From the sequence record OQ411014.1: 64,000 bases of DNA. One strand, written 5' to 3'. Numbering within the stretch: the stretch's first letter is position 1; each line of letters starts with the position of its first letter. The translations under genes were made by a program, and so were the position numbers. Positions 8,406 through 58,154 of this stretch are shown in pieces. Under the pieces are notes generated by a model. That model did not search any database. It worked only from the letters and a program-made list of their open reading frames with translations, and was not told the DNA's origin. The DNA comes from Escherichia phage EJP2.

Positions 8406-8431
8406 GCATTTTGAAGAAAATGTGATATAAT
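8402..8431 (+). promoter_or_regulatory. extended -10 promoter (TTGAGC N18 TGTGATATAAT) upstream of tRNA pair
   Basis: Second copy of TGTGATATAATATAA block. Confidence 0.5.
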
Positions 8432-14231: not shown

Positions 14232-14534
14232 ATGATTGCAACAATGATGATTGTACTTATCCCAATAGTACTAGTAATTCTAGTTACTTCATATGGTGCA
14301 ACCACAACTATTGAAGATCTAAAAACACATTACGCTATCGTCTTTAGTGAAGCACATGAAGACTTTGGTACAGTACTGACCGATAAGACTTATATTGCAA
14401 CTAAATGTAAGTACTACCGATTCTGGGAACGTTCTGACAAATACCACTACAGAGATGAGAAAGGCGTGAATCAGTACTTAGACGTACTGGATGCATTCTT
14501 GAAACCTTACTATACAGTAACCGAGGTAAAATAA
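14232..14534 (+). CDS. hypothetical protein with N-terminal hydrophobic segment (100 aa)
   Basis: ORF track. Confidence 0.5.
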   Translation: MIATMMIVLIPIVLVILVTSYGATTTIEDLKTHYAIVFSEAHEDFGTVLTDKTYIATKCKYYRFWERSDKYHYRDEKGVNQYLDVLDAFLKPYYTVTEVK

Positions 14535-14535
14535 C

Positions 14536-14751
14536 GTGAAAGCTAAAGATTTGATTTCAATTTTACAGAAAAACCCAGAAGCAGATATTCTTATTCATGC
14601 TTCGCCTTATGATGACTATGCGATTGGTAGTTGCGAAACTGCTCATTCATATCAAGCAGGGGACACCGCTGTTGAAGAGTCTGGTGAAGATTTTTCGGAT
14701 TCATTTGATGAAGATGGAAAACTCTTAGTACCAGTCATCATCCTCTCATAA
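14536..14751 (+). CDS. MKxxDLxxIL N-terminal family protein (71 aa)
   Basis: ORF track (GTG start, GAGGT RBS); N-terminus MKAKDLISILQKNPEADIL. Confidence 0.5.
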   Translation: MKAKDLISILQKNPEADILIHASPYDDYAIGSCETAHSYQAGDTAVEESGEDFSDSFDEDGKLLVPVIILS

Positions 14752-14840
14752 AAGAACGAAATGTAGACGGTCGTATTCAGTACTGAGTCACCAGGGGAGG
14801 TTGTGATTCCCGATTCAGTAGCTTATAAAGCAGTTCCGTG

Positions 14841-14941
<101 letters not shown>

Positions 14942-14960
14942 AGAGGTACTTCGAGTATGC

Positions 14961-15087
<127 letters not shown>

Positions 15088-15088
15088 A

Positions 15089-15135
<47 letters not shown>

Positions 15136-15232
15136 GTTAGATAAAGGTAAGAGTAAAAAATAATACAGTAAGATAACCTCCCCTCAATGCGAAAGAGTAT
15201 GGAGACTTGTTGGTTATCTTACTTCCTAAATA

Positions 15233-15294
15233 GCCGTTTAGCTCAGTTGGTAGAGCAAACACCTAGGTCGTCTGTTCGAGTCAGATAAACTGCA
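15233..15294 (+). pseudogene. tRNA-like element lacking an anticodon arm (degenerate tRNA or tRNA-derived RNA)
   Basis: Canonical D-arm TAGCTCAGTTGGTAGAGC and T-arm GTCTG-TTCGAGT-CAGAT with a 6/7 paired acceptor, but only 13 nt (containing palindrome ACCTAGGT) where the anticodon arm should be. Confidence 0.45.
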
Positions 15295-15311
15295 CAAAAT
15301 AAAGGTACAAT

Positions 15312-15728
15312 ATGGAATACAACATTGTTAAAATGGTGAACTACGTATTAAAAAACAACACATGGTCACTCTATGATGTACAAATAGAAGATATTGGTGA
15401 AGTTAGAGTATTTTGTTATGATCCAGATTTGTATGAAACCACAGATTTGAGTAAATGTTTTAATATTTTTCTTGGTTATGAAATCAATAATCATTTTTAT
15501 TCATTTGATGTGTATTTTGAACGAGTTATAATCAGAATTACTAATGTAGATAATGATTATTTTGACACTGAAATTATATTGAATTTTAACGATATTGATA
15601 CAGAAGAAAAATTCTTCCAGTACTCTTTAGTTAACGACACAATGGGATTGTCATTTGAGGACATTGAAGCTATACTTAAAGTTCAAAGTTCAATTTCAGA
15701 AGAGGTTCTAAATCCGTTAAATGTCTAG
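15312..15728 (+). CDS. FFQ-motif family protein
   Basis: ORF track; motif DTEEKFFQYSL. Confidence 0.55.
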   Translation: MEYNIVKMVNYVLKNNTWSLYDVQIEDIGEVRVFCYDPDLYETTDLSKCFNIFLGYEINNHFYSFDVYFERVIIRITNVDNDYFDTEIILNFNDIDTEEKFFQYSLVNDTMGLSFEDIEAILKVQSSISEEVLNPLNV

Positions 15729-15933
15729 AACAGTTTACAAGCACAATGGTGTAGTTTACATTACTGACAATGCTGGAACGTGGATTGTTAATAAAGGTAA
15801 TGCACCAAACCCGTACTCAATTGGTAGTGAGTTTTTATTGAAAAGGACATGGATTGCCACAGACAATATGTGCAAGTGCGGTGAGTACAGTACATATGAA
15901 GAAGCAATGAACCGTGTTCGTTCTATTATGTAA
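15721..15933 (+). CDS. hypothetical protein (70 aa)
   Basis: ORF track. Confidence 0.5.
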   Translation: MSRTVYKHNGVVYITDNAGTWIVNKGNAPNPYSIGSEFLLKRTWIATDNMCKCGEYSTYEEAMNRVRSIM

Positions 15934-15944
15934 TAGGAGATTTT

Positions 15945-16136
15945 ATGATTTGGAATTTAGCATGTTTATTTGGTCGTACATTCGTACTGGCAATTATCCA
16001 CACTCCTGGTATTCGTAATTTCGTTTCGTATGAATTCAAAGAAGCATACCATAACAACACTGAGCCTCGTCTTATTCGTATGAGTAAAGACTTTAACGTT
16101 CCTGTACAAAAATTCAAAAAGTACAGCGACGAATAA
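15945..16136 (+). CDS. hypothetical protein (63 aa)
   Basis: ORF track; TAGGAG RBS. Confidence 0.5.
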   Translation: MIWNLACLFGRTFVLAIIHTPGIRNFVSYEFKEAYHNNTEPRLIRMSKDFNVPVQKFKKYSDE

Positions 16137-16292
16137 TATAACAAATTTGAACAATTCAATCCGAACTAGTACTGATAGAACAAGCACTTACGGCTGTAAA
16201 CTGGGGTTCAGTACAAACCCCTTCAGGTACAGAGTGCAACAGATTGATGACAAAAGGTATCCTTCGTCACGTTCAACCCATAAGGACAACCC

Positions 16293-16658
16293 ATGAATGT
16301 AAAAGACCTCATGGCGATTTTAACTCGCCTTGACCCTGAAACTGAAGTAGTTATTGACGTTCAGGTTCCATATGACTCAATCGGTCCTACACCTAGTGTA
16401 GCTATCAAACACGCAGTAAAAGGATTTGATTGGGATAATGGTACAGTACGTTTATGTACTGAGCAGAAGTTAGTACTGTTCAATGAAGAGCAATATAAAC
16501 ATTTCTGTGTAATGAAGACTGAAGCTCGTAAAGAACGTTCAGATGCATGGAATAAACTAAACATCAGGAGTATGTCCTATGAAGAGTCCATTGAAGTTTC
16601 TAAGGACATTGATAAAAATGTACACCCTCTATTCAAAGGTTCTTACAATGAAAGATAA
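16293..16658 (+). CDS. MxxKDLxxIL N-terminal family protein (121 aa)
   Basis: ORF track; TAAGGA RBS; N-terminus MNVKDLMAILTRLDPETEVVI. Confidence 0.55.
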   Translation: MNVKDLMAILTRLDPETEVVIDVQVPYDSIGPTPSVAIKHAVKGFDWDNGTVRLCTEQKLVLFNEEQYKHFCVMKTEARKERSDAWNKLNIRSMSYEESIEVSKDIDKNVHPLFKGSYNER

Positions 16659-16877
16659 GAAATTCAATACAAAACGGTTTATCAGTCCAGAAGTAAAAGC
16701 TCGTCTAATCGAGATGTTGAAAAAGAAATAATCAATAATACCTATCATCTAATATCAGTACTACCAGGCGAGGTTCTACGTTTGCAGTACTGACAGGATA
16801 CCTCGTTCGCCAGTGGTGGGTTCGGGGGATGTACGTAAAGTCGTACTGGGTATGCCAAATGTGATATGGAGAGAAAC

Positions 16878-17357
16878 ATGGAATTAAGTTTAAAGCACCA
16901 GAATGCTCTGAAACGAGTAATGGACCATATCAAAACGAACAAGTCACTTTCTATGAGTACGTATGATTCCTTCCACAAAACAACACAAGTGTGGGCGAGT
17001 GATTCATTCGATAACTCGAAAGATAAAAGTAATTCTTGTATAGAAGATACTGATGGTGTAATATATGTAAATCTAAAGTACTCAAATTTTGAAGAAATGT
17101 ATATGTATATCGACATCAGAGATATGGTGGTTAACATTTCATATGCATATGATGAAGACATTGCTGCATTGAAACATGAATCGGAGATAACAAATGATTA
17201 TTGGTATGCTGATTTCACTGTTCCGATATTTGAAAAAGAAGAAGAATATTTCCAGTACTTAACTACTGAAGAGAATCCTTTGTCTATAGAAGAAAACAAA
17301 ATGTTTATTGATTTTGTTGTTGAATTTTATAAAAGAAAAGAAAAACATATTCGTTGA
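16878..17357 (+). CDS. FFQ-motif family protein
   Basis: ORF track 16866..17357, second in-frame ATG preferred (GGAGAG RBS); motif KEEEYFQYL. Confidence 0.55.
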   Translation: MELSLKHQNALKRVMDHIKTNKSLSMSTYDSFHKTTQVWASDSFDNSKDKSNSCIEDTDGVIYVNLKYSNFEEMYMYIDIRDMVVNISYAYDEDIAALKHESEITNDYWYADFTVPIFEKEEEYFQYLTTEENPLSIEENKMFIDFVVEFYKRKEKHIR

Positions 17358-20910: not shown

Positions 20911-20939
20911 TGAGACAAACTGGAAAATTGTGATATAAT
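20911..20939 (+). promoter_or_regulatory. extended -10 promoter (TGAGAC N~17 TGTGATATAAT)
   Basis: Third copy of TGTGATATAATATAA block; followed by ~95 nt leader with hairpin. Confidence 0.45.
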
Positions 20940-21319: not shown

Positions 21320-21568
21320 ATGAAACAAGGCGATTTGGAGCAACAAGTCAAACATCTACACAAACGTATTGAGCAGATGAAAGCCCAACGTACAGAAGCG
21401 TGGAGTAAATGGCAAGAACTACAAAACGTACAAGCAACTCGTGAAATTCAAAAAGAAATTTCTTCTCTTTCTGGATTGATTTGTTCTCTGAACTATAGTA
21501 TTATGGGTACTCAGAAGACGTACAAAGAAGCGTGTTCCGAATTGATTTCATTCATCACTAAAGGGTAA
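21320..21568 (+). CDS. coiled-coil protein (82 aa)
   Basis: ORF track 21266..21568 trimmed to ATG after GGAG RBS (track start lies in terminator). Confidence 0.5.
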   Translation: MKQGDLEQQVKHLHKRIEQMKAQRTEAWSKWQELQNVQATREIQKEISSLSGLICSLNYSIMGTQKTYKEACSELISFITKG

Positions 21569-21573
21569 TAACA

Positions 21574-22101
21574 ATGTCAATTGAAATGATTTTTCTGTTC
21601 TCATGTTTAGCTTTCCTGGGTGCGTTCATTGTACTGCTAACTATCAGTACTGCGGTAATTGGTTCTAACAAAGCACTTCGTTTGCAATACATGATGAGTG
21701 CTCTGAAGAAAGATAAGAACGTTACTGATATCGTTGAGCATATCTTAGCTAAAGAAGAAGTAGGTCTTCTTGAAGTTTCACTATCTGGTAATCGCTTACG
21801 TTTTTATGAAGTAGGTGAAGTTCCAAATGATGGTCTTTCCTGGAGCAACCGTAACTCACATAGTGTTTCTATTTGGATTGGTAATCGTTATTCTAACTAT
21901 GGTTATATCGAGAAGTACTATTCCGAAGATGATTCACAGTTCGACGGTAAGTGTCCAGCATATAAGACTTGGTTGAAACTGATTGCACTTGAACAAAGGA
22001 TTGCAAACAAAGAAACTGGTATCAATACCGACAAGACCAAAGCTAAGAAAGAAACTACTTACAAAGCTGAAAAGAACAAAGTAACAGAAATCGAATTATA
22101 A
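21574..22101 (+). CDS. membrane-anchored protein (175 aa)
   Basis: ORF track; N-terminal transmembrane segment. Confidence 0.55.
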   Translation: MSIEMIFLFSCLAFLGAFIVLLTISTAVIGSNKALRLQYMMSALKKDKNVTDIVEHILAKEEVGLLEVSLSGNRLRFYEVGEVPNDGLSWSNRNSHSVSIWIGNRYSNYGYIEKYYSEDDSQFDGKCPAYKTWLKLIALEQRIANKETGINTDKTKAKKETTYKAEKNKVTEIEL

Positions 22102-22104
22102 TCA

Positions 22105-22127
22105 AAAGGGGTCTTGTGCCCCTTTTT
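22105..22127 (+). terminator. rho-independent terminator
   Basis: AAAAGGGGTC/GTGCCCCTTTTT hairpin. Confidence 0.55.
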
Positions 22128-22144
22128 CGTGTAAGGAAATGAAT

Positions 22145-22444
22145 ATGAGTATTCACCAAACTATTGTTGATAAACTCCAAGAAGTTCTCGATGAAGTTCA
22201 AGAACTTCCTGCTGGATATCAGTACAAGATTCGTGAGTTATGTTCTTGTATTGAAACTGTTGTTAGCATGTATGAAGATGTTCAGAAGGGTATCATCCCT
22301 GAAGTTTTCAAAAAGAATACGGCACAGCATGTAGATGCAGCAGAACATGAAGTTCAGGATGAACCACAGCCTGTTCAAGAAGTAAAAGAAGAAGTAAAGC
22401 CCATAAAGAATGATGTGTTGAATATCCCTAACATCGAGCTATAA
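22145..22444 (+). CDS. hypothetical protein (99 aa)
   Basis: ORF track 22139..22444, ATG with better spacing to AAGGA RBS preferred. Confidence 0.5.
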   Translation: MSIHQTIVDKLQEVLDEVQELPAGYQYKIRELCSCIETVVSMYEDVQKGIIPEVFKKNTAQHVDAAEHEVQDEPQPVQEVKEEVKPIKNDVLNIPNIEL

Positions 22445-22446
22445 TT

Positions 22447-22947
22447 ATGATAAACCCAAAGGTACTCAAAACTATAAAAGACGAATTGACAGTACTGCAA
22501 AGTACTATCCCAATGACTCGTAATAGTGGTGTACACAATTCAACAAAGAAGACTACCGTATTCATACCCATTGATGGTGTTAGTGGTGAAGATATAAATC
22601 TCACAGTGAACACGTATCATAATGGAGAGACATTCTTTGATGGTAAGTGTAGTAACATTCATATACTCGTTGTGGGTAGAAATGATGATGTTGATGCAGC
22701 GGGGAATCGATATTCTTCATTTTTCGAGATTGACATATATCGAGATAGATTGTTCATGCCTGGAATGAATGGTGAAGGATCTATCGATTTCAGTATGTTC
22801 TCTGACGATTATGAAATTAGTGAAAAAGAATTGTTTGAATTTTTCCTAGTTACTGATACAATGGGTTTACCAGATGACCTCATGTTGACTATCATCGAAG
22901 TTACACGAGTATTACAAGATACTGATACGTTTTCACCCATATTCTAA
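22447..22947 (+). CDS. FFQ-like family protein
   Basis: ORF track; C-terminal ISEKELFEFFLVTDTMGLPDD parallels 15312 protein FFQYSLVNDTMGLSFED. Confidence 0.55.
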   Translation: MINPKVLKTIKDELTVLQSTIPMTRNSGVHNSTKKTTVFIPIDGVSGEDINLTVNTYHNGETFFDGKCSNIHILVVGRNDDVDAAGNRYSSFFEIDIYRDRLFMPGMNGEGSIDFSMFSDDYEISEKELFEFFLVTDTMGLPDDLMLTIIEVTRVLQDTDTFSPIF

Positions 22948-22956
22948 GGAACAACA

Positions 22957-23229
22957 ATGCAAAATTTAGATGGCTTCAAACCTTTCTTCACTTTCTATGA
23001 CTTTGGTATTCGCAAAGAAGATGCTAAAGGTTTCTTACAATTTGGTGCTACTGTAGCAGGTTCCCCAAACAGTGGATATCATGTGTTCATTGCAGCACTA
23101 GGGAAACGTTCTAAAGTACTGGCAGACTTGGAACTCTTCCATAAGCTACATGTTGCGTTAGAAGATAATCAAGAGTTTTATGATTTGTGTGTTCAAATTG
23201 TAACAGAAAATCCAGAACGTAATAAATAA
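22957..23229 (+). CDS. hypothetical protein (90 aa)
   Basis: ORF track; TAAGGAA RBS. Confidence 0.5.
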   Translation: MQNLDGFKPFFTFYDFGIRKEDAKGFLQFGATVAGSPNSGYHVFIAALGKRSKVLADLELFHKLHVALEDNQEFYDLCVQIVTENPERNK

Positions 23230-23366
23230 TAATACCAAAAGAAGAATAACATAATTATATCCCTCCCCTACCTATGGGATTTGGTGTACTAGTACTGCAA
23301 TAGTACTGTACATCCCGTTGGTAGACAACTTGTGTATCTCCTGCACATATAAACATCCGCAAACTG

Positions 23367-23396
23367 TCCAGCTTTATGCTGGACTTTTTGTTTTTA
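23367..23396 (+). terminator. rho-independent terminator
   Basis: GTCCAGC-TTTAT-GCTGGAC hairpin followed by T-run. Confidence 0.5.
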
Positions 23397-23438
23397 TGCT
23401 GTTATAATTTAAGTATTAACAACCATAAAGAGATAATC

Positions 23439-23828
23439 ATGAAAGCTGAACTATATGATTTATTGTTACAATCATTGAAGACTGAATTTGTATTTGACTT
23501 CAAGAACCCAACTGGCTCAATTGTATTCACGAACAAGATCGTTTATGCCAAAGCTGAAGGCGGGGCATCTGTAATCTACGTACCGTATGAAGGTCAATCA
23601 TTTTATGTGTGTATCTATCCTGACACAACAGATTACGTTACAGTAATGTACATGTCAGGTGATGATTTTGAAGAAAAAGAGGGCAGTACTGAATCTTTTG
23701 GTACATTCAAAATGATCAGTACTGAAGAAGAGTTCTTCATGAAGAGTACTATCAACGATATGAATCATTCTTTTGAATTGATCAGTACTCTTCATGAACT
23801 CCAGAAAGAACTTGACCAGTATTTGTAA
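23439..23828 (+). CDS. FFQ-like family protein
   Basis: ORF track 23376..23828 trimmed (track start inside terminator); motif STEEEFFMKST. Confidence 0.55.
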   Translation: MKAELYDLLLQSLKTEFVFDFKNPTGSIVFTNKIVYAKAEGGASVIYVPYEGQSFYVCIYPDTTDYVTVMYMSGDDFEEKEGSTESFGTFKMISTEEEFFMKSTINDMNHSFELISTLHELQKELDQYL

Positions 23829-23834
23829 GGACAG

Positions 23835-24170
23835 ATGATGTTAGAACTACTAGAAACAATCCTGTACGCAGCTAGAGCAGAACGATATGATAAACTCGAT
23901 GCACTAGCACCTAAAGTGTTTTATGGTCGAGAAGGTGATGCGATATTGTCCTTTACTATCATGACAGAAGAAAACTTTTCTATCATGATTAGGGCAACAC
24001 ACGTCATTGACTGTCGTTGTAAAAACTGGTCTGACGCAACATTGAAGTACGGTTACAAGGAAGATGAATTCTTCTTAGAATCACTCAAGCGTGAAATACA
24101 TTTTTCCTATGAAGAATATCTACTTGCACAAAAAATTTCAGAAGTTCTAAAAAGACTCGCATATAAATGA
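23835..24170 (+). CDS. FFQ-like family protein
   Basis: ORF track; motif YKEDEFFLESL. Confidence 0.55.
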   Translation: MMLELLETILYAARAERYDKLDALAPKVFYGREGDAILSFTIMTEENFSIMIRATHVIDCRCKNWSDATLKYGYKEDEFFLESLKREIHFSYEEYLLAQKISEVLKRLAYK

Positions 24171-24196
24171 GAAATTTAGGATAAATGTGATATAAT
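24168..24196 (+). promoter_or_regulatory. extended -10 promoter (TGAGAA N17 TGTGATATAAT)
   Basis: Fourth copy of TGTGATATAATATAA block; followed by ~140 nt leader with two hairpins. Confidence 0.45.
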
Positions 24197-24338
24197 ATAA
24201 TTATTAGGGACATTCGTCCCAACCGCCCTCACTGAAGCATGGTCAGACTCAGTGAGCACACTACGGGTGCTCTGACTGGTAAATGGAGGCTACCATAGAT
24301 GTAGCCTCCAATTTATCCTTAAACAAAAGGAGAGCAAA

Positions 24339-24785
24339 ATGAAATTCAACAAAATTCAGTTAGTGTTTGAAAACTGTGAAACTTTAGTTATTAATGCATC
24401 TGATATTGTTACATTGAAGACTTCACCAGCCCAAACTTCTTATCACAAGAACTACGGTAACAGTATCATTGAAGAACATGAAATCAAACACATCTTCCTG
24501 GCAGTGAAGAATGGCACTAAGGCTGATCCTGATTCTGTGTCATGGGACGATGACAGTACTGTGCGATTCCGTAATGACGTTACGAACATTACCTTCATTA
24601 GTGATAATGAAAGTAAAAACTACGTAGTTCGTTGGGAAGAGAGTAATACTAATAATTACTCATCTGCGTATCAGCGTTGCACAACCACTCTAGATGGTCA
24701 TCAAGTCTGGATCAACTCATCTGATGTTATTATGGATTTGCAAATTTCTGACGTTGATGAGTTAGCATCGTTTATGAATATCTAA
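24339..24785 (+). CDS. hypothetical protein (148 aa)
   Basis: ORF track; AAGGAG RBS. Confidence 0.55.
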   Translation: MKFNKIQLVFENCETLVINASDIVTLKTSPAQTSYHKNYGNSIIEEHEIKHIFLAVKNGTKADPDSVSWDDDSTVRFRNDVTNITFISDNESKNYVVRWEESNTNNYSSAYQRCTTTLDGHQVWINSSDVIMDLQISDVDELASFMNI

Positions 24786-24794
24786 GGAAATCAA

Positions 24795-25157
24795 ATGACA
24801 AAGCACCGTACATTACATAATGCAATAAAACATGTTCATACTAATATCAGTACTATCATGTCTAACCAGCCATATATATGCGGTGCTTTGGAATTCACAT
24901 CTCTAGGACACCAAACTGTCCACGCATACGAACTCTTCTGGAACACCCACAGAGCCATTACTATTGATATGTATGAGAATCACATGGCCTTCAAATCATG
25001 GAACGTTGATACGTACCGATGGATGGATGTGTGCAAGATAAGTTATGACATCACCAGGGAAGAGTTCGATCAGTTGTTGTTCGTTCATGACTTACGTACT
25101 TTGGAGTTCAAATCATTCAAGTACCTAAAGCTCATCAAAGAACACATTTTCAGTTGA
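24795..25157 (+). CDS. hypothetical protein (120 aa)
   Basis: ORF track. Confidence 0.5.
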   Translation: MTKHRTLHNAIKHVHTNISTIMSNQPYICGALEFTSLGHQTVHAYELFWNTHRAITIDMYENHMAFKSWNVDTYRWMDVCKISYDITREEFDQLLFVHDLRTLEFKSFKYLKLIKEHIFS

Positions 25158-25210
25158 CAATGATTTGTTATGATGTATAATACTAACAAATAACACAGAG
25201 GATTGAAAAC

Positions 25211-25639
25211 ATGTCATTAGAAGCTAAAGTACATTTCAAAGATACGTGGATTGACTTAACCACCAATACAGTACTGAACAATGAATTCAGTACACAAACT
25301 CTTTCTGCTGATACAGTAGAAGAACTAACCAAAGATGTTAAGCAACTCATCTCATCACGTGTTGGCTCTGACGTATACAACGCTCAACGCCATATTACTG
25401 AATTGTTAGGTGTAGATGGTATTGAATACCAGATGCAGTACAAAATGAGCAAAGAAGAGATGTTTGACTTCATTTTGACTAACAATGTAGAAATCACACG
25501 AGATGGTGCTGTTTGGACTAAAACTGACGGTCGTAAAGTTCGTGTGAAATATTCTGTCAAGATCAATGATTTGAACTTAGCTGGATATGATTTAGAAGAA
25601 GCTATTCAGTACTATCACGATACGAGAGGTTCACGATGA
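25211..25639 (+). CDS. hypothetical protein (142 aa)
   Basis: ORF track; promoter TTGACA N16 TATAAT at ~25154. Confidence 0.55.
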   Translation: MSLEAKVHFKDTWIDLTTNTVLNNEFSTQTLSADTVEELTKDVKQLISSRVGSDVYNAQRHITELLGVDGIEYQMQYKMSKEEMFDFILTNNVEITRDGAVWTKTDGRKVRVKYSVKINDLNLAGYDLEEAIQYYHDTRGSR

Positions 25640-26028
25640 TTGTAGTTGCAGTATTACTTGGATTTGCTATAATGGCTATAACGTTACGTCTTAACGGTTA
25701 CTACAGAGACGAACGATTTCGCATTGAGCGAGAGAAAGAACGTGACTTGCACAAAGAAATATATAAAGCACATGAGCCAGTAAAATCACCATATGAAGTT
25801 CGATTGTCTTTGAGTAAGGACAAGAAGTTGGGTTATGCAGTGTATGACCACAGTGTGGGGCATTTTGCGAACTCAAATGGTGTTTTTATGTGGTTTCCTG
25901 ATTCGAAAAGTGCTATGATATTTCAAACAACACTGGAAGTGATTGGTTCATATCCACTAACGTACAAAGAATATCTAGATGTAATTCTTCCTGAAGTACT
26001 AAACCAAGAGAAAACTGAGGAAAAATAA
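25636..26028 (+). CDS. membrane-anchored protein (130 aa)
   Basis: ORF track; N-terminal TM; related to next gene (shared RWGYAIWD / KLGYAVYD segment). Confidence 0.5.
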   Translation: MIVVAVLLGFAIMAITLRLNGYYRDERFRIEREKERDLHKEIYKAHEPVKSPYEVRLSLSKDKKLGYAVYDHSVGHFANSNGVFMWFPDSKSAMIFQTTLEVIGSYPLTYKEYLDVILPEVLNQEKTEEK

Positions 26029-26379
26029 ATGTTAGCTGCAATCATCTGTACTGTTATCTTTTCTGCAACGTATTATATTTGCCAGAAGAAACGTACTGAA
26101 GCGTTTGAAACAGCACAAGCTAATCAACTAGAACTTGAGCGTTCTATGTTGATACAGGAGTCCAATGAGGGTAAAGAAGATTCCCCATTCCTCATTAAAC
26201 GTGTAGAATGTAATGGTCGCTGGGGTTATGCAATTTGGGATAAACGTATTTCTGATTATGCTAACATCTCTGACCAAAAGATTGAATTCTTCAGGACATT
26301 GGCTGCGGTTTATTGTATTATGAACGAAATAGAAACTTTTGAGAACTTTAAAGTTACTAAACCTATGCATACATTATAA
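26029..26379 (+). CDS. membrane-anchored protein (116 aa), paralog of previous
   Basis: ORF track; N-terminal TM. Confidence 0.5.
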   Translation: MLAAIICTVIFSATYYICQKKRTEAFETAQANQLELERSMLIQESNEGKEDSPFLIKRVECNGRWGYAIWDKRISDYANISDQKIEFFRTLAAVYCIMNEIETFENFKVTKPMHTL

Positions 26380-26390
26380 GGAGATATAAG

Positions 26391-26537
26391 ATGATTACTG
26401 TACAACTAAATGGTGTAGAACTAGAACTATCTGTCAAGGATGCAGAGAAACTAGTAGAAGAACTGAACTTCAAAATCAACGAGTACTATTACAGTACTAC
26501 TAACGTTCCTGACTCGGAAATCCTATACCGCGAGTAA
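26391..26537 (+). CDS. small hypothetical protein (48 aa)
   Basis: Uninterrupted frame found by hand; strong AAGGAG RBS; below ORF-track cutoff. Confidence 0.45.
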   Translation: MITVQLNGVELELSVKDAEKLVEELNFKINEYYYSTTNVPDSEILYRE

Positions 26538-26540
26538 ATC

Positions 26541-26942
26541 ATGCAAGAAGAAGATATTGTCGATATACTGAAGGGTGTAGTCAAAGAAATCAGAGATAAT
26601 GGTGAATGCAAACAATGTAGGTTCACCATCAATGATGGTAATGGTTCTGATGGCTCATTTCTTATGCAGTTTGAGAATATGACACTTACCATTTACCCGA
26701 CTTCAGTTATAACAAATCAGTTCGAAACAAATTCAGTGAATTACTTTCGGCGGCATCCAAACGATACAGAAGAACAGTACTTCGCTAGAATGCTAACAGG
26801 CACTGAGAGTATAATTTCTCCCAGTACTGAATTAGTACTACAAAGATTCTTTTTCGTTGTCATTACATTCATTCGTGATGGTCTATCCATGTTTCACGAT
26901 ACAGTCTGGACTGGCAATGCATACTACGATGACCAATTATAA
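26541..26942 (+). CDS. FFQ-like family protein
   Basis: ORF track; motif DTEEQYFARML. Confidence 0.55.
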   Translation: MQEEDIVDILKGVVKEIRDNGECKQCRFTINDGNGSDGSFLMQFENMTLTIYPTSVITNQFETNSVNYFRRHPNDTEEQYFARMLTGTESIISPSTELVLQRFFFVVITFIRDGLSMFHDTVWTGNAYYDDQL

Positions 26943-26956
26943 GTTAGGAGATATAT

Positions 26957-27754
26957 ATGATTTTTGATAAAGTTAGTTTTCCTGCACATGCCTTCACTCA
27001 TGCGATTGTAGAAGACACAACTCTGTACGTGTACCTTAGTACTGGTAAGTGTATTGATATTGAATACGATAGCAATGACGCAGCAGAATACGCACTACTA
27101 CGCATTGATGCAGCCGTTTCACAATCCAATCCAGCACAAGAAGTTGTGTACGATGTGAAAGGTAAGATCACTGACATTGTGGGTTCTCTGAAAGAAAAAG
27201 TACTAGACGTTGCTAAAGATAAGGTCAAGAAAACTGCTCAAGAGAAAATCCAAGACACCATTGAAGAACGTGCACAGAAAATGTACGATGACCTACAGAA
27301 TGCACTAACTAACACCAAAGGTGTAGTTCAGAAGGTAGATGATATTTTCAGTACTATCTTTAGTGTTGGTGCACCCACTGAAGAAGAAAAACCTAAAGCA
27401 AAACCAGAAGTGAAACCTTCCCAACCTAAGAAGAAAACATACAAGCATTTTGGTGAAGATTTTTACAGTACTGTAAAAGTAACTGACCAACCGCGTGATC
27501 TAGACGGTCATCAACTACTCAATACTAAAGTATCTGATTTGACCCTGGATGAACTACGTACTGCTGTTGGTTTTGGTATTGATGATGCAATTTCTAACAA
27601 TCCAAATGTTAGTGAAAGTATCAAGATGATTGTGAAAACATTTGGTGCACAAGAAACTGAAGAAGCAATGACTTATCTAAAAGACCTGATTGTGGATTAT
27701 GCACAATCACAACCGAACGCAACCGTTCGACAAGCAATCGCTAAATTCTTGTAA
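26957..27754 (+). CDS. hypothetical protein with K/P/E-rich linker (265 aa)
   Basis: ORF track; TAGGAG RBS. Confidence 0.6.
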   Translation: MIFDKVSFPAHAFTHAIVEDTTLYVYLSTGKCIDIEYDSNDAAEYALLRIDAAVSQSNPAQEVVYDVKGKITDIVGSLKEKVLDVAKDKVKKTAQEKIQDTIEERAQKMYDDLQNALTNTKGVVQKVDDIFSTIFSVGAPTEEEKPKAKPEVKPSQPKKKTYKHFGEDFYSTVKVTDQPRDLDGHQLLNTKVSDLTLDELRTAVGFGIDDAISNNPNVSESIKMIVKTFGAQETEEAMTYLKDLIVDYAQSQPNATVRQAIAKFL

Positions 27755-27759
27755 TAAAA

Positions 27760-27785
27760 AAGGCTCCTATAAAGGAGCCTTTTGT
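27760..27785. terminator. bidirectional rho-independent terminator
   Basis: AAAAAGGCTCC/GGAGCCTTTT hairpin between convergent genes. Confidence 0.6.
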
Positions 27786-33758: not shown

Positions 33759-34751
33759 ATGACTGTAAAACAACTCAATCTAGAATCTATTCAAGACGAT
33801 ATCATGGATGAATGTTTTGTAAATGAAAACAATACGTTCGAGCGTATTAGTGAACAGTCACATGACAGTACTGAAGAAGTAGAAGAAAGTACTGATGACG
33901 TAGGTTCTTTCAAGACTTACAACACATCTAGCGTTTTACCAGAAGGTGAGACGAATGAATCTATTATTCGTTTAATCCGTGACGGTATCAATGTGAAGCG
34001 TAACATTGACCTTATCGTACGTAACAACGTAGGCTTAGTATATAGCCAAGCACGTCAGTGTACTTGTAATATCCCATTCCAAGATAAAGCACAGTACGCT
34101 TTTGAAGGTCTAATGCGTGCAATCCATCGTTATGATGTGAATCAGAATATTCTTTTCAGTACTTACGCTACTGTGTCTATTCGCCAAACACTCTATAACT
34201 TTGGTAATGATGAAGTTCGTCTAATCAGTATTCCACGTCACTTGTCAGTGGATAACATCAAGATTCAGAACTACATTGAGAAGCATCGTTCTAAGTTCGG
34301 TCGTACCCCAAGTGAAGATGAAATCAGTACTGCTACTGGCATCAAGTTATCCGCAGTGAAACGTGTAGTGCAGTACATGAACAGTAAGCCAATGAGTTTC
34401 GATACTCCAATGGGTTCTGACAGTACTGAAAACGATATGAGCTTAGTGGATGTAATCCCAGGAACTTCCAATGATTACACACTAAGTGCAGATACAGTTC
34501 AGAAAGCACCACTAGATGTAATTGCATTGGTCATGTCTGAACTACCAGAAGAAGAGCAGTTGCTGATCAATAAGATTCACGGCTTGAATGGACATGAAGA
34601 AAGTACTTTTATTGCTCTAGAGACTGCTGGATTGGTAGATGCGAAGGGTAAGAAGCTAACTAACCGTTGCACTATTCATCGTCGTTACAATGCAATACTG
34701 GATAAGATTCGTAATATTCTAAAAGCACGTGACATTTCATTCGATGACTGA
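33759..34751 (+). CDS. RNA polymerase sigma factor, sigma70 family
   Basis: Region 2 match VGLVYSQARQ..FEGLMRAIHRYD..FSTYATVSIRQT and C-terminal region-4-like helix-turn-helix; AAGGAG RBS. Confidence 0.7.
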   Translation: MTVKQLNLESIQDDIMDECFVNENNTFERISEQSHDSTEEVEESTDDVGSFKTYNTSSVLPEGETNESIIRLIRDGINVKRNIDLIVRNNVGLVYSQARQCTCNIPFQDKAQYAFEGLMRAIHRYDVNQNILFSTYATVSIRQTLYNFGNDEVRLISIPRHLSVDNIKIQNYIEKHRSKFGRTPSEDEISTATGIKLSAVKRVVQYMNSKPMSFDTPMGSDSTENDMSLVDVIPGTSNDYTLSADTVQKAPLDVIALVMSELPEEEQLLINKIHGLNGHEESTFIALETAGLVDAKGKKLTNRCTIHRRYNAILDKIRNILKARDISFDD

Positions 34752-39371: not shown

Positions 39372-39677
39372 ATGATTGGTGTAAATTGGAATATCATTGT
39401 ATTATGTGTACCGTTGTTATTCATGACTATTGCAATGCTTGTCCGAATGTGGAAGCCCAGCATCACTGAAAAGGATATCGGATTCAATCCGCTGATTCAG
39501 CTACTCGACAATGTTTTATGTATGTGGGTAGTACTGGCATTCGTTTGGCTCTATGTATTCAATGAAGATTATCTAAACGCCAGAGCAGCACTGTATTCAA
39601 TGATTGCACTTGGGTGGTTGTGGTTGACGTGCTTCACTATTCAAACTACAGTAAAGTTCTTTCAAAATAAGGGTTGA
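39372..39677 (+). CDS. membrane protein (101 aa)
   Basis: ORF track. Confidence 0.5.
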   Translation: MIGVNWNIIVLCVPLLFMTIAMLVRMWKPSITEKDIGFNPLIQLLDNVLCMWVVLAFVWLYVFNEDYLNARAALYSMIALGWLWLTCFTIQTTVKFFQNKG

Positions 39678-56633: not shown

Positions 56634-56640
56634 CGAAAAA

Positions 56641-56698
56641 AAGGTTGACTTCGGTCAGCCTTTTTCGTATTATGTACTCATCGAAACGAAGGAGATTA
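56641..56698 (+). repeat. repeated promoter-leader cassette, copy 2
   Basis: AAGGTTGACTTCGGTCAGCCTTTTTCGTATTATGTACTCATCGAAACGAAGGAGAT. Confidence 0.6.
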
Positions 56699-56700
56699 TT

Positions 56701-56832
56701 ATGTATATTTTAATAGTGGAGTACTGCTTCTATACTCTATGGATTTACTTAGGTTGTCGATATGGCTTACCTTTATTTGGTAAGTACTTCTTAGATTCTG
56801 GTTCAGACAAATATGGCGAGAGAAATGACTAA
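56701..56832 (+). CDS. small hydrophobic protein (43 aa)
   Basis: ATG directly downstream of cassette RBS; uninterrupted frame found by hand. Confidence 0.35.
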   Translation: MYILIVEYCFYTLWIYLGCRYGLPLFGKYFLDSGSDKYGERND

Positions 56833-56936
56833 AGGAATGCAGAAGTTAAACTGTTCGTGAAAACTCAAGACTGGCCTGAAGTTGTACAGCAAGTAATATG
56901 TTCATTCACTAAGACTGAACTAATATAAGAAAAAAT

Positions 56937-56990
56937 GGTTGACTTCGGTCAGCCTTTTTCGTATTATGTACTCATCGAAACGAAACGTAC
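56937..56990 (+). repeat. repeated promoter-leader cassette, copy 3
   Basis: Same cassette; explains identical spurious N-terminus MTSVSLFRIMYSSKR of track ORFs 54806 and 56939. Confidence 0.6.
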
Positions 56991-57775: not shown

Positions 57776-57776
57776 T

Positions 57777-58154
57777 ATGCAAATGTTCTTGACACCTTTT
57801 GGTTCAATCTGTTTAGTACTGGAAACTTTCCTATCTGTTGCAGTACTATGTATGCTGATTGGGAAGTTCTTTAATGCTCGCCCATTCAATAAGTACTATG
57901 ATGCAATTTATGATCAAAGTGAAAGTGAAGGCGTAGCTATCTTTCAATTGCTGGTGGCTATCGTAATCGCTACTATCCTTGCATGGATTGGTATCATCGG
58001 GGAATTCGAACTCCTAACAGAATTTTCAGTTGTAGCAGCTTCTGTGTGTACTGCCTTTACAATTCTGTACTTTACAATCTGTGCAGTGGATGCTATTATT
58101 CCTTATATCAAAAACGTGCACCACAAAATCGTAAAGAAAACCAACGGGGAATAA
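57777..58154 (+). CDS. multi-pass membrane protein, tandem family member 1
   Basis: ORF track 57732..58154 trimmed to ATG after GGAGA RBS; C-terminus HHKIVKK. Confidence 0.5.
   Translation: MQMFLTPFGSICLVLETFLSVAVLCMLIGKFFNARPFNKYYDAIYDQSESEGVAIFQLLVAIVIATILAWIGIIGEFELLTEFSVVAASVCTAFTILYFTICAVDAIIPYIKNVHHKIVKKTNGE

Follow-up and report, generated by a model that had tools for sequence, protein, structure and literature searches.

What is the strongly structured gap in front of a small gene of Escherichia phage EJP2 for? We analyzed a 64-kb stretch of this phage (here called the window; 90.7% coding), in which an intergenic gap at positions 24171 to 24338 separates a 111-amino-acid (aa) open reading frame (ORF; stop codon at 24168 to 24170) from a 148-aa ORF that begins with the ATG at 24339. 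EJP2 is a 349-kb virulent Escherichia coli phage and forms a separate lineage among the RaK2-like phages; the paper that describes it does not cover promoters, noncoding RNA (ncRNA), or the transcriptome (PMC10213699). The original prediction had read the gap as a leader of ~140 nucleotides (nt) with two strong hairpins behind an extended -10 promoter, the arrangement of a riboregulator, RNA thermometer, or attenuator. With a probability of roughly 0.4, we favor a plainer reading, namely, a constitutive structured 5' untranslated region (UTR) that combines a 5' stabilizer with a leaky terminator or RNA barrier.

The promoter is present, with a perfect TG-A-TATAAT (TGATATAAT) at 24188 to 24196, and it is a member of a family. 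The 20-nt core that surrounds it occurs four times in the window (at 630, 8418, 20926, and 24183), where 0.06 copies are expected. The promoter elements are as follows.

24167 to 24172, plus strand: weak -35-like hexamer ATGAGA, with an 18-nt spacer to TATAAT, overlapping the TGA stop of the 111-aa ORF
24183 to 24202, plus strand: 20-nt promoter core AAATGTGATATAATATAATT, which holds the extended -10 (24188 to 24196) and an overlapping second TATAAT (24196 to 24201)
24203, plus strand: A, the predicted transcription start, 7 nt after the -10

Placement of the start 7 nt after the -10 follows the established sigma-70 spacing rule, and the nucleotide right after the 20-mer is an A in 4/4 copies. 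The copy at 630 leads into tRNA-Thr, that at 8418 into tRNA-Ser and tRNA-Arg, that at 20926 into a 73-aa gene (phrog_15704), and that at 24183 into the leader of the EJP2 148-aa gene. The AAATGAGA of the -35 region is also found upstream of the copy at 20926 (P20926). Each of the four copies is followed by a hairpin that begins 0 to 6 nt after the 20-mer, within ~7 nt of the predicted +1. The minimum free energies (MFEs) of the first 32 nt behind the four copies are -12.0, -12.1, -5.1, and -8.6 kcal/mol (Fisher P = 1.2e-4 against the genome background). Because all four promoter copies carry a +1-proximal hairpin, the first hairpin of the leader studied here (H1) is its version of a module-wide feature. 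Transcription would begin near A24203, from one of at least four near-identical extended -10 modules served by the host sigma-70, and the resulting leader of ~136 nt, close to the length first proposed, would be the constitutive 5' UTR of an early-gene mRNA in an EJP2-like jumbo phage.

Folding bears out the predicted structure and extends it. A 149-nt segment folds at -49.2 kcal/mol, compared with -31.7 +/- 3.9 kcal/mol for 200 dinucleotide shuffles (z = -4.45), none of which (0/200) was as stable. Among the 33 intergenic gaps of at least 60 nt, the leader gap has the lowest energy per nucleotide (-0.315 kcal/mol/nt), beating even the gaps that contain tRNAs. No 120-nt segment of the plus strand has a lower absolute MFE than the leader; once GC content is regressed out, the leader ranks 8th (z = -3.0), and its GC excess (49% versus 37% for the genome) is itself part of the fold signal. 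All leader stems are purely Watson-Crick and so carry no strand signal, and the fold of the minus strand is no weaker than that of the plus strand (-46.4 versus -43.8 kcal/mol). The structural elements of the leader are as follows.

24207 to 24220, plus strand: hairpin H1, GGGAC-AUUC-GUCCC, which starts 4 nt after the predicted start and has an unpaired probability of ~0 in every construct
24228 to 24256, plus strand: hairpin H2, CUCACUGA / UCAGUGAG, 8 bp with a 13-nt loop
24250 to 24278, plus strand: hairpin H2', CAGUGAGCAC-ACUACGG-GUGCUC(UG)ACUG, an alternative to H2 found by suboptimal folding
24241 to 24277, plus strand: candidate H-type pseudoknot read from the sequence, GGUCAGA (H2 loop, 24241 to 24247) with UCUGACU (24271 to 24277)
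24284 to 24310, plus strand: hairpin H3, UGGAGGCUAC-loop-GUAGCCUCCA, 10 bp and -16.5 kcal/mol, extendable by UAAAU/AUUUA flanks
24316 to 24331, plus strand: Shine-Dalgarno (SD) hairpin UCCUU-AAACAA-AAGGA, 5 bp and -4.1 kcal/mol, which partly covers the SD sequence AAGGAG (24327 to 24332)

H2 and H3 are the two hairpins of the original prediction; both are found where it placed them, and each is unique in the window. The second had been described as standing directly before the AAGGAG ribosome-binding site (RBS), a detail that needs correction, as H3 ends 16 nt before it. H1 is a third robust hairpin that had been overlooked. H1 and H3 form with a probability of ~1 in every construct folded. 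The middle domain behaves differently. H2 (arms CTCACTGA / TCAGTGAG at 24228 to 24235 and 24249 to 24256) and H2' both use 24250 to 24256 and are mutually exclusive, and they give 24221 to 24283 two nearly isoenergetic folds (-16.8 kcal/mol with H2 and -16.3 kcal/mol with H2'). The candidate pseudoknot, with six Watson-Crick pairs and one G-U pair, looks sterically feasible given its connecting loops of 5, 1, and 14 nt. Alternative folds are limited to 24221 to 24283 and leave H3 and the SD untouched. This middle domain is specific to the species, bistable, and invariant among strains.

H3 has the stem of an intrinsic terminator and only part of the tail. Its arms, (T)GGAGGCTAC / GTAGCCTCC(A) at 24284 to 24293 and 24301 to 24310, include six G-C pairs and enclose a 7-nt loop, within the usual range for such terminators (a GC-rich stem of ~5 to 14 bp with a 3- to 8-nt loop), and a simple terminator scan flags it. 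Among simple hairpins in the 64 kb, it ranks 5th in stability. The window contains seven hairpins at or below -16 kcal/mol, compared with ~0.75 in first-order Markov simulations, and the other very stable ones are mostly canonical terminators with an A-tract, a stem, and a T-tract. The H3 flanks, UAAAU / AAUUUAU, have the same layout as the canonical terminators of this phage (AAAGGG...CCCTTTT). What follows the stem is weaker.

24311 to 24320, plus strand: weak U-rich tail AUUUAUCCUU after H3, with a U-tail score of 1.84, rank 42 of 128

Under the weighting scheme of d'Aubenton-Carafa/TransTermHP, the tail A-AUUUAUCCUU scores 1.84, versus 3.1 to 5.3 for the clear terminators of the same window; in place of an uninterrupted U-tract of ~6 to 8 nt, the tract is broken (AAUUUAUCC). 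H3 ends 28 nt before the ATG of the 148-aa gene, and the two-gene unit upstream has no terminator of its own before H3. As a separate observation, many gene ends on the plus strand reuse a family of almost identical canonical terminators, AAAGGGTTGACTTCGGTCAGCCCTTTT, in which a TTCG-looped stem stands between an A-tract and a T-tract; members lie at 39669, 44042, 47090, 53232, 53968, and 56638.

The attenuator claim survives in part. In its classical form it finds no support, because no antiterminator competes with H3: we found no antiterminator or antisequestor overlapping either H3 or the SD helix, and the 5' arm of H3 has an unpaired probability of at most 0.01. In this respect H3 differs from attenuators of the trp or riboswitch type. 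A weaker form stands, in which H3 acts as a leaky factor-independent terminator or RNA barrier by analogy with a sister leader described below. H3 is like the leaky terminators and attenuators of phage early operons in its GC-rich 10-bp stem, its A-rich and U-rich flanks, and its place between promoter and RBS. Most likely, it is a leaky intrinsic terminator, a pause site, or a barrier at RNA 3' ends, and its effect would be to dampen and insulate the transcription that reaches the 148-aa gene, whether it started at the gene's own very strong promoter or in the upstream operon.

H1 invites comparison with a different system. Stem-loops at the 5' terminus protect E. coli mRNAs from 5'-end-dependent decay by RppH and RNase E. 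By its location ~4 nt from the predicted 5' end, and with a +1-proximal hairpin behind all four promoter copies, H1 is like a stabilizer of the ompA type, and it most likely shields the 5' end from 5'-end-dependent decay, as the ompA 5' stem-loop does. The likeness is incomplete: the start here is predicted, and the +1 hairpin of the sister leader keeps its sequence from genus to genus, which a generic stabilizer would not need.

The sister leader is that of the 73-aa phrog_15704 gene (P20926; 20926 to 21036), which has the same promoter core and the same layout as the leader of the EJP2 148-aa gene. Its order is a +1 hairpin, a second hairpin (GCGUUCAA-UCAU-UUGAACGC), then AAUUCUAU, an A-rich spacer, an SD, and an ATG. 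We compared it with 11 homologous leaders (from Hallingskeid, 121Q, A4, JNE01, RaK2, CBB, GAP32, Munch, XbC2, Yen9-04, and Serratia BF). The leader is thus kept across 12 RaK2-like jumbo phages of six host genera, and all of the homologous leaders have a sigma-70 or extended -10 promoter. The +1 element, (A)CATCGACGGATGTAAAACG, is conserved in sequence in most of them and variant in 121Q, A4, JNE01, and RaK2. The second hairpin is present in all and ends 30 to 40 nt before the ATG. Its stems differ by lineage (GCGTTCAA/TTGAACGC, TCCTCA/TGAGGG, GTCTC/GAGAC, and GGTACTTA/TAAGTACT) while the hairpin is kept, which indicates compensatory change. A T-rich tail follows; it is strong in 121Q, Yen9-04, and Serratia BF. 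The tails of CBB and GAP32 would also be strong if the outer GGTA/TACT pairs are counted, although gapless-stem scores are only 1.3. A terminator-like hairpin between promoter and RBS is thus a conserved design in the RaK2-like clade, and the sister leader has the appearance of a conserved cis-regulatory leader, or leader terminator, that has not been described before. The leader of the EJP2 148-aa gene is the EJP2-specific instance of this design, with a much stronger stem and an extra middle domain of 56 nt.

In searches of several collections, the leader itself is specific to the EJP2 species. BLAST with 1 kb and with the leader alone found no match among 50,697 phage records, and BLAST against E. 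coli genomes found no match to the leader. Exact-pattern and protein-guided scans of IMG/VR, the JGI metagenomes, and GTDB genomes retrieved nothing beyond the species apart from two chance matches in GC-rich bacterial DNA. A covariance model of the leader, run against the syntenic 50 kb of A4 and other loci, recovered nothing but the leader. The homologue of the 148-aa gene abuts or overlaps the gene upstream in Hallingskeid, RaK2, and 121Q, and in A4 it is preceded by an unrelated gap of 103 nt. Thus, the hairpins are not conserved in the available relatives, an outcome that the original prediction had named as counting against it, but those relatives are very distant (their downstream proteins are only 25 to 31% identical).

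Within the species, the picture is one of constraint at the 5' end and variation toward the SD. The strain set comprised 24 sequences, the window and 23 metagenome contigs, which resolve into nine haplotypes. H1, H2, and the H2 loop show no variation in 24/24 sequences, and the 5' two-thirds of the leader is invariant. Compared with L015, the most divergent strain (3.5% overall, with 9.7% differences at 4-fold degenerate sites), 3/168 positions of the leader differ (binomial P = 4e-5) and none of the 134 nt from 24150 to 24283, whereas the flanking genes diverge by 4.5% and 8.1% at third positions. Variation is clustered in the part from H3 to the SD. A24287U, in three strains, weakens H3 from -17.1 to -12.7 kcal/mol; U24284C, in two strains, breaks another H3 pair, and neither of these changes is compensated; G24267U, in one strain, hits the loop-closing pair of H2'. 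No covarying pairs were found among the nine haplotypes, a test of low power in strains that are >96% identical. The surrounding region, 21338 to 27785, compared with strains L005 to L015, is a recombinant mosaic. Third-codon-position divergence from L015 is ~1% at 22957 to 23828 and 26029 to 26942 and 8 to 16% at 24339 to 25639 and 26957 to 27754, and single-nucleotide polymorphism (SNP) patterns among strains that are >99% identical are mutually incongruent.

The most frequent strain difference in the leader is an inversion.

24294 to 24300, plus strand: H3 loop CATAGAT, swapped for ATCTATG or ATCGATG in 14/24 strain sequences

ATCTATG is the exact reverse complement of CATAGAT, and the H3 arms are unchanged. 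The inversion is present in both ENA and Logan assemblies. We take k to be 31 for the latter, and the k-mers of the assemblers would exceed the 27-nt hairpin. Because the hairpin is shorter than such k-mers and the flip is seen in both collections, we regard the inversion as real. Flip-flop of a loop between short inverted repeats is well known, for instance in noncoding hairpins of chloroplasts, and is attributed to template switching in replication. The H3 case is like these inversions at quasi-palindromes in that its 7-nt loop is reverse complemented between strains with constant arms; it differs in that it occurs in a natural population of a virulent phage, with the two states at ~40:60 and in strains that are recombinant mosaics. 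Our literature search on hairpin-loop inversion returned nothing directly relevant. Strain L005 has the flipped loop, yet within 250 bp to the right its flanking SNPs are those of the window, which suggests that the flip is recurrent or that a very short conversion tract was involved. Since both orientations are common (14 versus 10), the H3 stem would matter and the loop sequence would not, which argues against a kissing loop, a seed, or a protein site of the boxB type. The two states also differ in coding potential. In the orientation of the window the sequence reads GGAGG-N9-ATG-TAG, a start directly followed by a stop; in the flipped orientation it reads GGAGG-N8-ATG with 13 further codons, an upstream ORF of 14 codons whose TGA overlaps the main ATG. 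Translation of either from inside so stable a stem seems doubtful. Elsewhere in the leader, we rejected a 19-aa ORF (ATG at 24239, TAG at 24298) as coding, as it has no SD and 3/3 point variants are nonsynonymous (G24267T, Gly>Val; T24284C, Trp>Arg; A24287T, Arg>Trp).

Several other readings compete with a constitutive structured 5' UTR. Nothing points to sensing of a ligand or of temperature by the leader, and a riboswitch or thermometer with H2/H2' as sensor and H3 or the SD hairpin as expression platform is very improbable. Such a device could draw on the near-isoenergetic folds of 24221 to 24283, the possible pseudoknot, the strong sequence constraint on the middle domain, and an SD that is mostly paired in the predicted ensemble (unpaired ~0.2). 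Neither alternative fold, however, reaches H3 or the SD, so that sensor and platform would not communicate, and homologous genes in relatives do without such a leader. The thermometer part of the original claim is not supported by the predicted temperature response. The SD is held only in the 5-bp hairpin of -4.1 kcal/mol, and its mean unpaired probability is nearly flat, at 0.19 from 20 to 30°C, 0.20 at 37°C, 0.21 at 42°C, and 0.22 at 45°C; an SD/AUG hairpin that melts at ~30 to 42°C, as in the ROSE and FourU types, is not predicted. Nor did the riboregulator part find support, with no Rfam family at E <= 10, no homologue in phage, viral, metagenome, or genome collections, and no covariation. 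At gathering thresholds, Rfam found only six tRNAs in the window, and at E <= 10 the leader gave only chance matches (MALAT1 and U4atac); on these results, known riboswitch, thermometer, ribozyme, tRNA-like, and small RNA (sRNA) families were rejected. A different use of the 5' hairpins would be antitermination of the put or nut type, in which the RNA of H1 and H2, by itself or together with a factor of phage or host, modifies the polymerase so that transcripts from the leader's own promoter pass H3 and those from upstream stop there. We consider this improbable. It would explain an order (stop codon, promoter, two stem-loops, terminator-like hairpin, RBS) that is otherwise wasteful, and it would suit an upstream two-gene unit without a terminator before H3. 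The same order recurs across the clade in the sister leader, with its conserved +1 hairpin and, in several phages, a strong U-tract on the second hairpin. HK022 put and lambda nut likewise have two stem-loops between promoter and terminator-like hairpin, and here H1 and H2 occupy +5 to +54, with H3 at +82; the likeness is one of architecture alone. On the other side, neither the sister +1 element nor the two tRNA leaders have any sequence in common with H1 and H2, and the downstream "terminator" of EJP2 is weak enough that antitermination may be unnecessary. An octamer, UGCUCUGA at 24268 to 24275, may resemble boxA (UGCUCUUUA), but the match is short enough for chance. A still bolder version is less probable again: H1-H2 as a put-like antitermination RNA, possibly clade-wide with CATCGACGGATGTAAAACG of the sister +1 element as its other instance, and tuned by the H3 loop inversion, which would toggle the mini-ORF.

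The leader could also be an RNA in its own right, an independent phage sRNA of ~110 nt (~24203 to ~24315) that would be made from its own strong promoter, end at H3, and target RNAs or proteins of host or phage in trans, leaving the gene to be expressed only by read-through. We hold this to be unlikely, though worth keeping in view. A promoter followed by a terminator-like hairpin is what such a gene would look like, two other copies of the promoter core drive tRNAs, and the segment is a GC-rich island (49% versus 37%) with a fold stability like that of tRNAs and an invariant H1-H2 part. There is also a precedent in the RaK2-related jumbo phage PA5oct, whose abundant, function-unassigned ncRNAs (ncRNA001 to ncRNA004) were defined by RNA-seq, measure 236 to 619 nt, and were described without known promoters (PMC7318152). 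Like them, the EJP2 leader is short, structured, and lineage specific and lacks database homologues; unlike them, it has a clear promoter, has an ORF with RBS 28 nt downstream, and is known from its sequence alone. The weak U-tail (1.84) is unlike the real terminators of this phage, a good SD and ATG follow only 28 nt downstream with no promoter between, and complementarity within the window is only 10 to 12 nt, which is chance level; the leader also has no match in E. coli genomes, at the sensitivity of BLAST, and no homologue in relatives. At the level of DNA, the inverted repeats could serve a dimeric phage regulator as its operator (or as a roadblock) between +25 and +53, or be mere quasi-palindromes, the RNA folds being incidental. 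CTCACTGA-N13-TCAGTGAG is indeed a perfect 8-bp inverted repeat with half-site centers 21 bp apart, the minus strand folds at least as well, the stems are all Watson-Crick, and the H3 loop inversion indicates that DNA or replication intermediates do form the hairpin. This is nevertheless the least probable of the readings considered, because the position downstream of a promoter and the covarying hairpin of the sister leader fit a role in RNA better, and three hairpins plus an SD hairpin exceed what an operator needs. A repeated operator was rejected, as the arm sequences of H2 and H3 do not occur above chance elsewhere in the 64 kb. Finally, the leader may have no specific function, being a lineage-specific filler or remnant that happens to fold. 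Its absence from all relatives, the lack of covariation, and the concentration of variation in the H3-SD part, with uncompensated stem changes, agree with this. That reading is about as improbable as antitermination, given a fold z of -4.45 that goes with the top rank among intergenic gaps, 0 differences in 134 nt against a local third-position divergence of 4.5 to 8%, and retention in 24/24 strain sequences of a tightly packed genome (90.7% coding).

The preferred reading, a constitutive 5' UTR with a stabilizing H1 and a leaky H3, has its own difficulties. A generic stabilizer and terminator does not explain the 56-nt bistable middle domain or its invariance. No helix of the leader covaries across the 24 sequences, and the two uncompensated changes described above weaken H3 in 5/24 strains. 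As strain divergence is a mosaic, the clean stretch of 134 nt could partly come from a recent recombination tract. The sequence-conserved +1 hairpin of the sister leader is a hint that such hairpins are recognized specifically instead of protecting the 5' end in a generic way. With so poor a U-tract, termination at H3 may be negligible, and H3 would then have some other role.

The gene behind the leader yielded no clue to its function.

24339 to 24785, plus strand: downstream gene of 148 aa, phrog_2349, a PHROG without assigned function

Its product falls in a 90%-identity cluster, one 148-aa member of which is WEM33472.1 (EJP02_411) of Escherichia phage EJP2 itself. Homologues are found in 44 RaK2-like phages at 25 to 31% identity. 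The protein has no Pfam match, and an AlphaFold single-sequence model was uninformative (pLDDT 29.6). The window around it carries ~145 ORFs on the plus strand, mostly short, six tRNA genes, and a sigma-70-family gene at 33759 to 34751. A 506-aa window protein shares 62 to 68% identity with proteins from Asteriusvirus and further RaK2-like jumbo phages. In the related phage CBB, predicted RpoD-like (sigma-70-like) promoters are concentrated before clusters of short early genes, which lie next to a phage sigma factor (PMC5259590); the window, with its mostly short ORFs and its sigma factor gene, matches this layout. The literature on promoters and ncRNAs of RaK2-like phages offered only the MEME-predicted promoters of CBB and the RNA-seq-defined ncRNAs of PA5oct, and nothing on the EJP2 leader.

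Three further observations in the window are set down here. The palindrome CAGTACTG occurs 84 times, versus 1.1 expected (e.g., at 139, 340, 1704 ... 61832), and its core AGTACT occurs 240 times, versus 23 expected (~11-fold; the next palindromic hexamer reaches 2.2-fold). Sites recur at intervals of ~740 bp, both between genes and in each of the three reading frames; many form pairs that could fold into long hairpins, and they are conserved among strains (1 change in 150 site bases versus a background of 3.4%). Hallingskeid, A4, RaK2, and 121Q (loci L001 to L004) have 8 to 12 AGTACT sites per 3.4 kb, and these similar densities point to a clade-wide signal at the level of DNA. We found no explanation for the excess in the literature. 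The most stable 120-nt fold on both strands, at 23681 to 23800 inside the ORF 23376 to 23828 (z ~ -4.4), is due to AGTACT-containing direct and inverted repeats (GATCAGTACTGAAGAAGAG... / ...AGTACTCTTCATGAA) in this coding region. Long stretches (187 to 305 nt) in which no ORF reaches 45 aa lie at 14306 to 14535, 14752 to 14938, 16659 to 16865, 56634 to 56938, and 57776 to 58025, and several of them hold long AGTACT-anchored inverted repeats, such as GTATTCAGTACTGA at 14773 and 14894.

A tRNA-like sequence at 15233 to 15294 scores 31.3 bits with the Rfam tRNA model under permissive filters (E = 5.6e-4) and was missed by ARAGORN and by the default Rfam scan. It has acceptor, D, and T arms, with 5 nt in place of the anticodon arm, and is preceded by a 12-bp hairpin at ~15167 to 15223. 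Its sequence would suit either a pseudogene or a tRNA-like RNA; Rfam gave no other match in 14300 to 16900. The AGTACT excess, the sister leader, and this tRNA-like gene without an anticodon arm are more surprising than the leader of the EJP2 148-aa gene.

If the preferred reading is true, this leader is ordinary phage expression hardware rather than a new principle. It would be of use in annotating EJP2-like therapeutic phages and as a source of compact, portable expression parts, and the natural flip of the H3 loop provides a built-in experiment on stem versus loop. Beyond this gene, the recurring layout of promoter, +1 hairpin, terminator-like hairpin, and RBS points to a so far undescribed way of regulating early genes that the clade would share.

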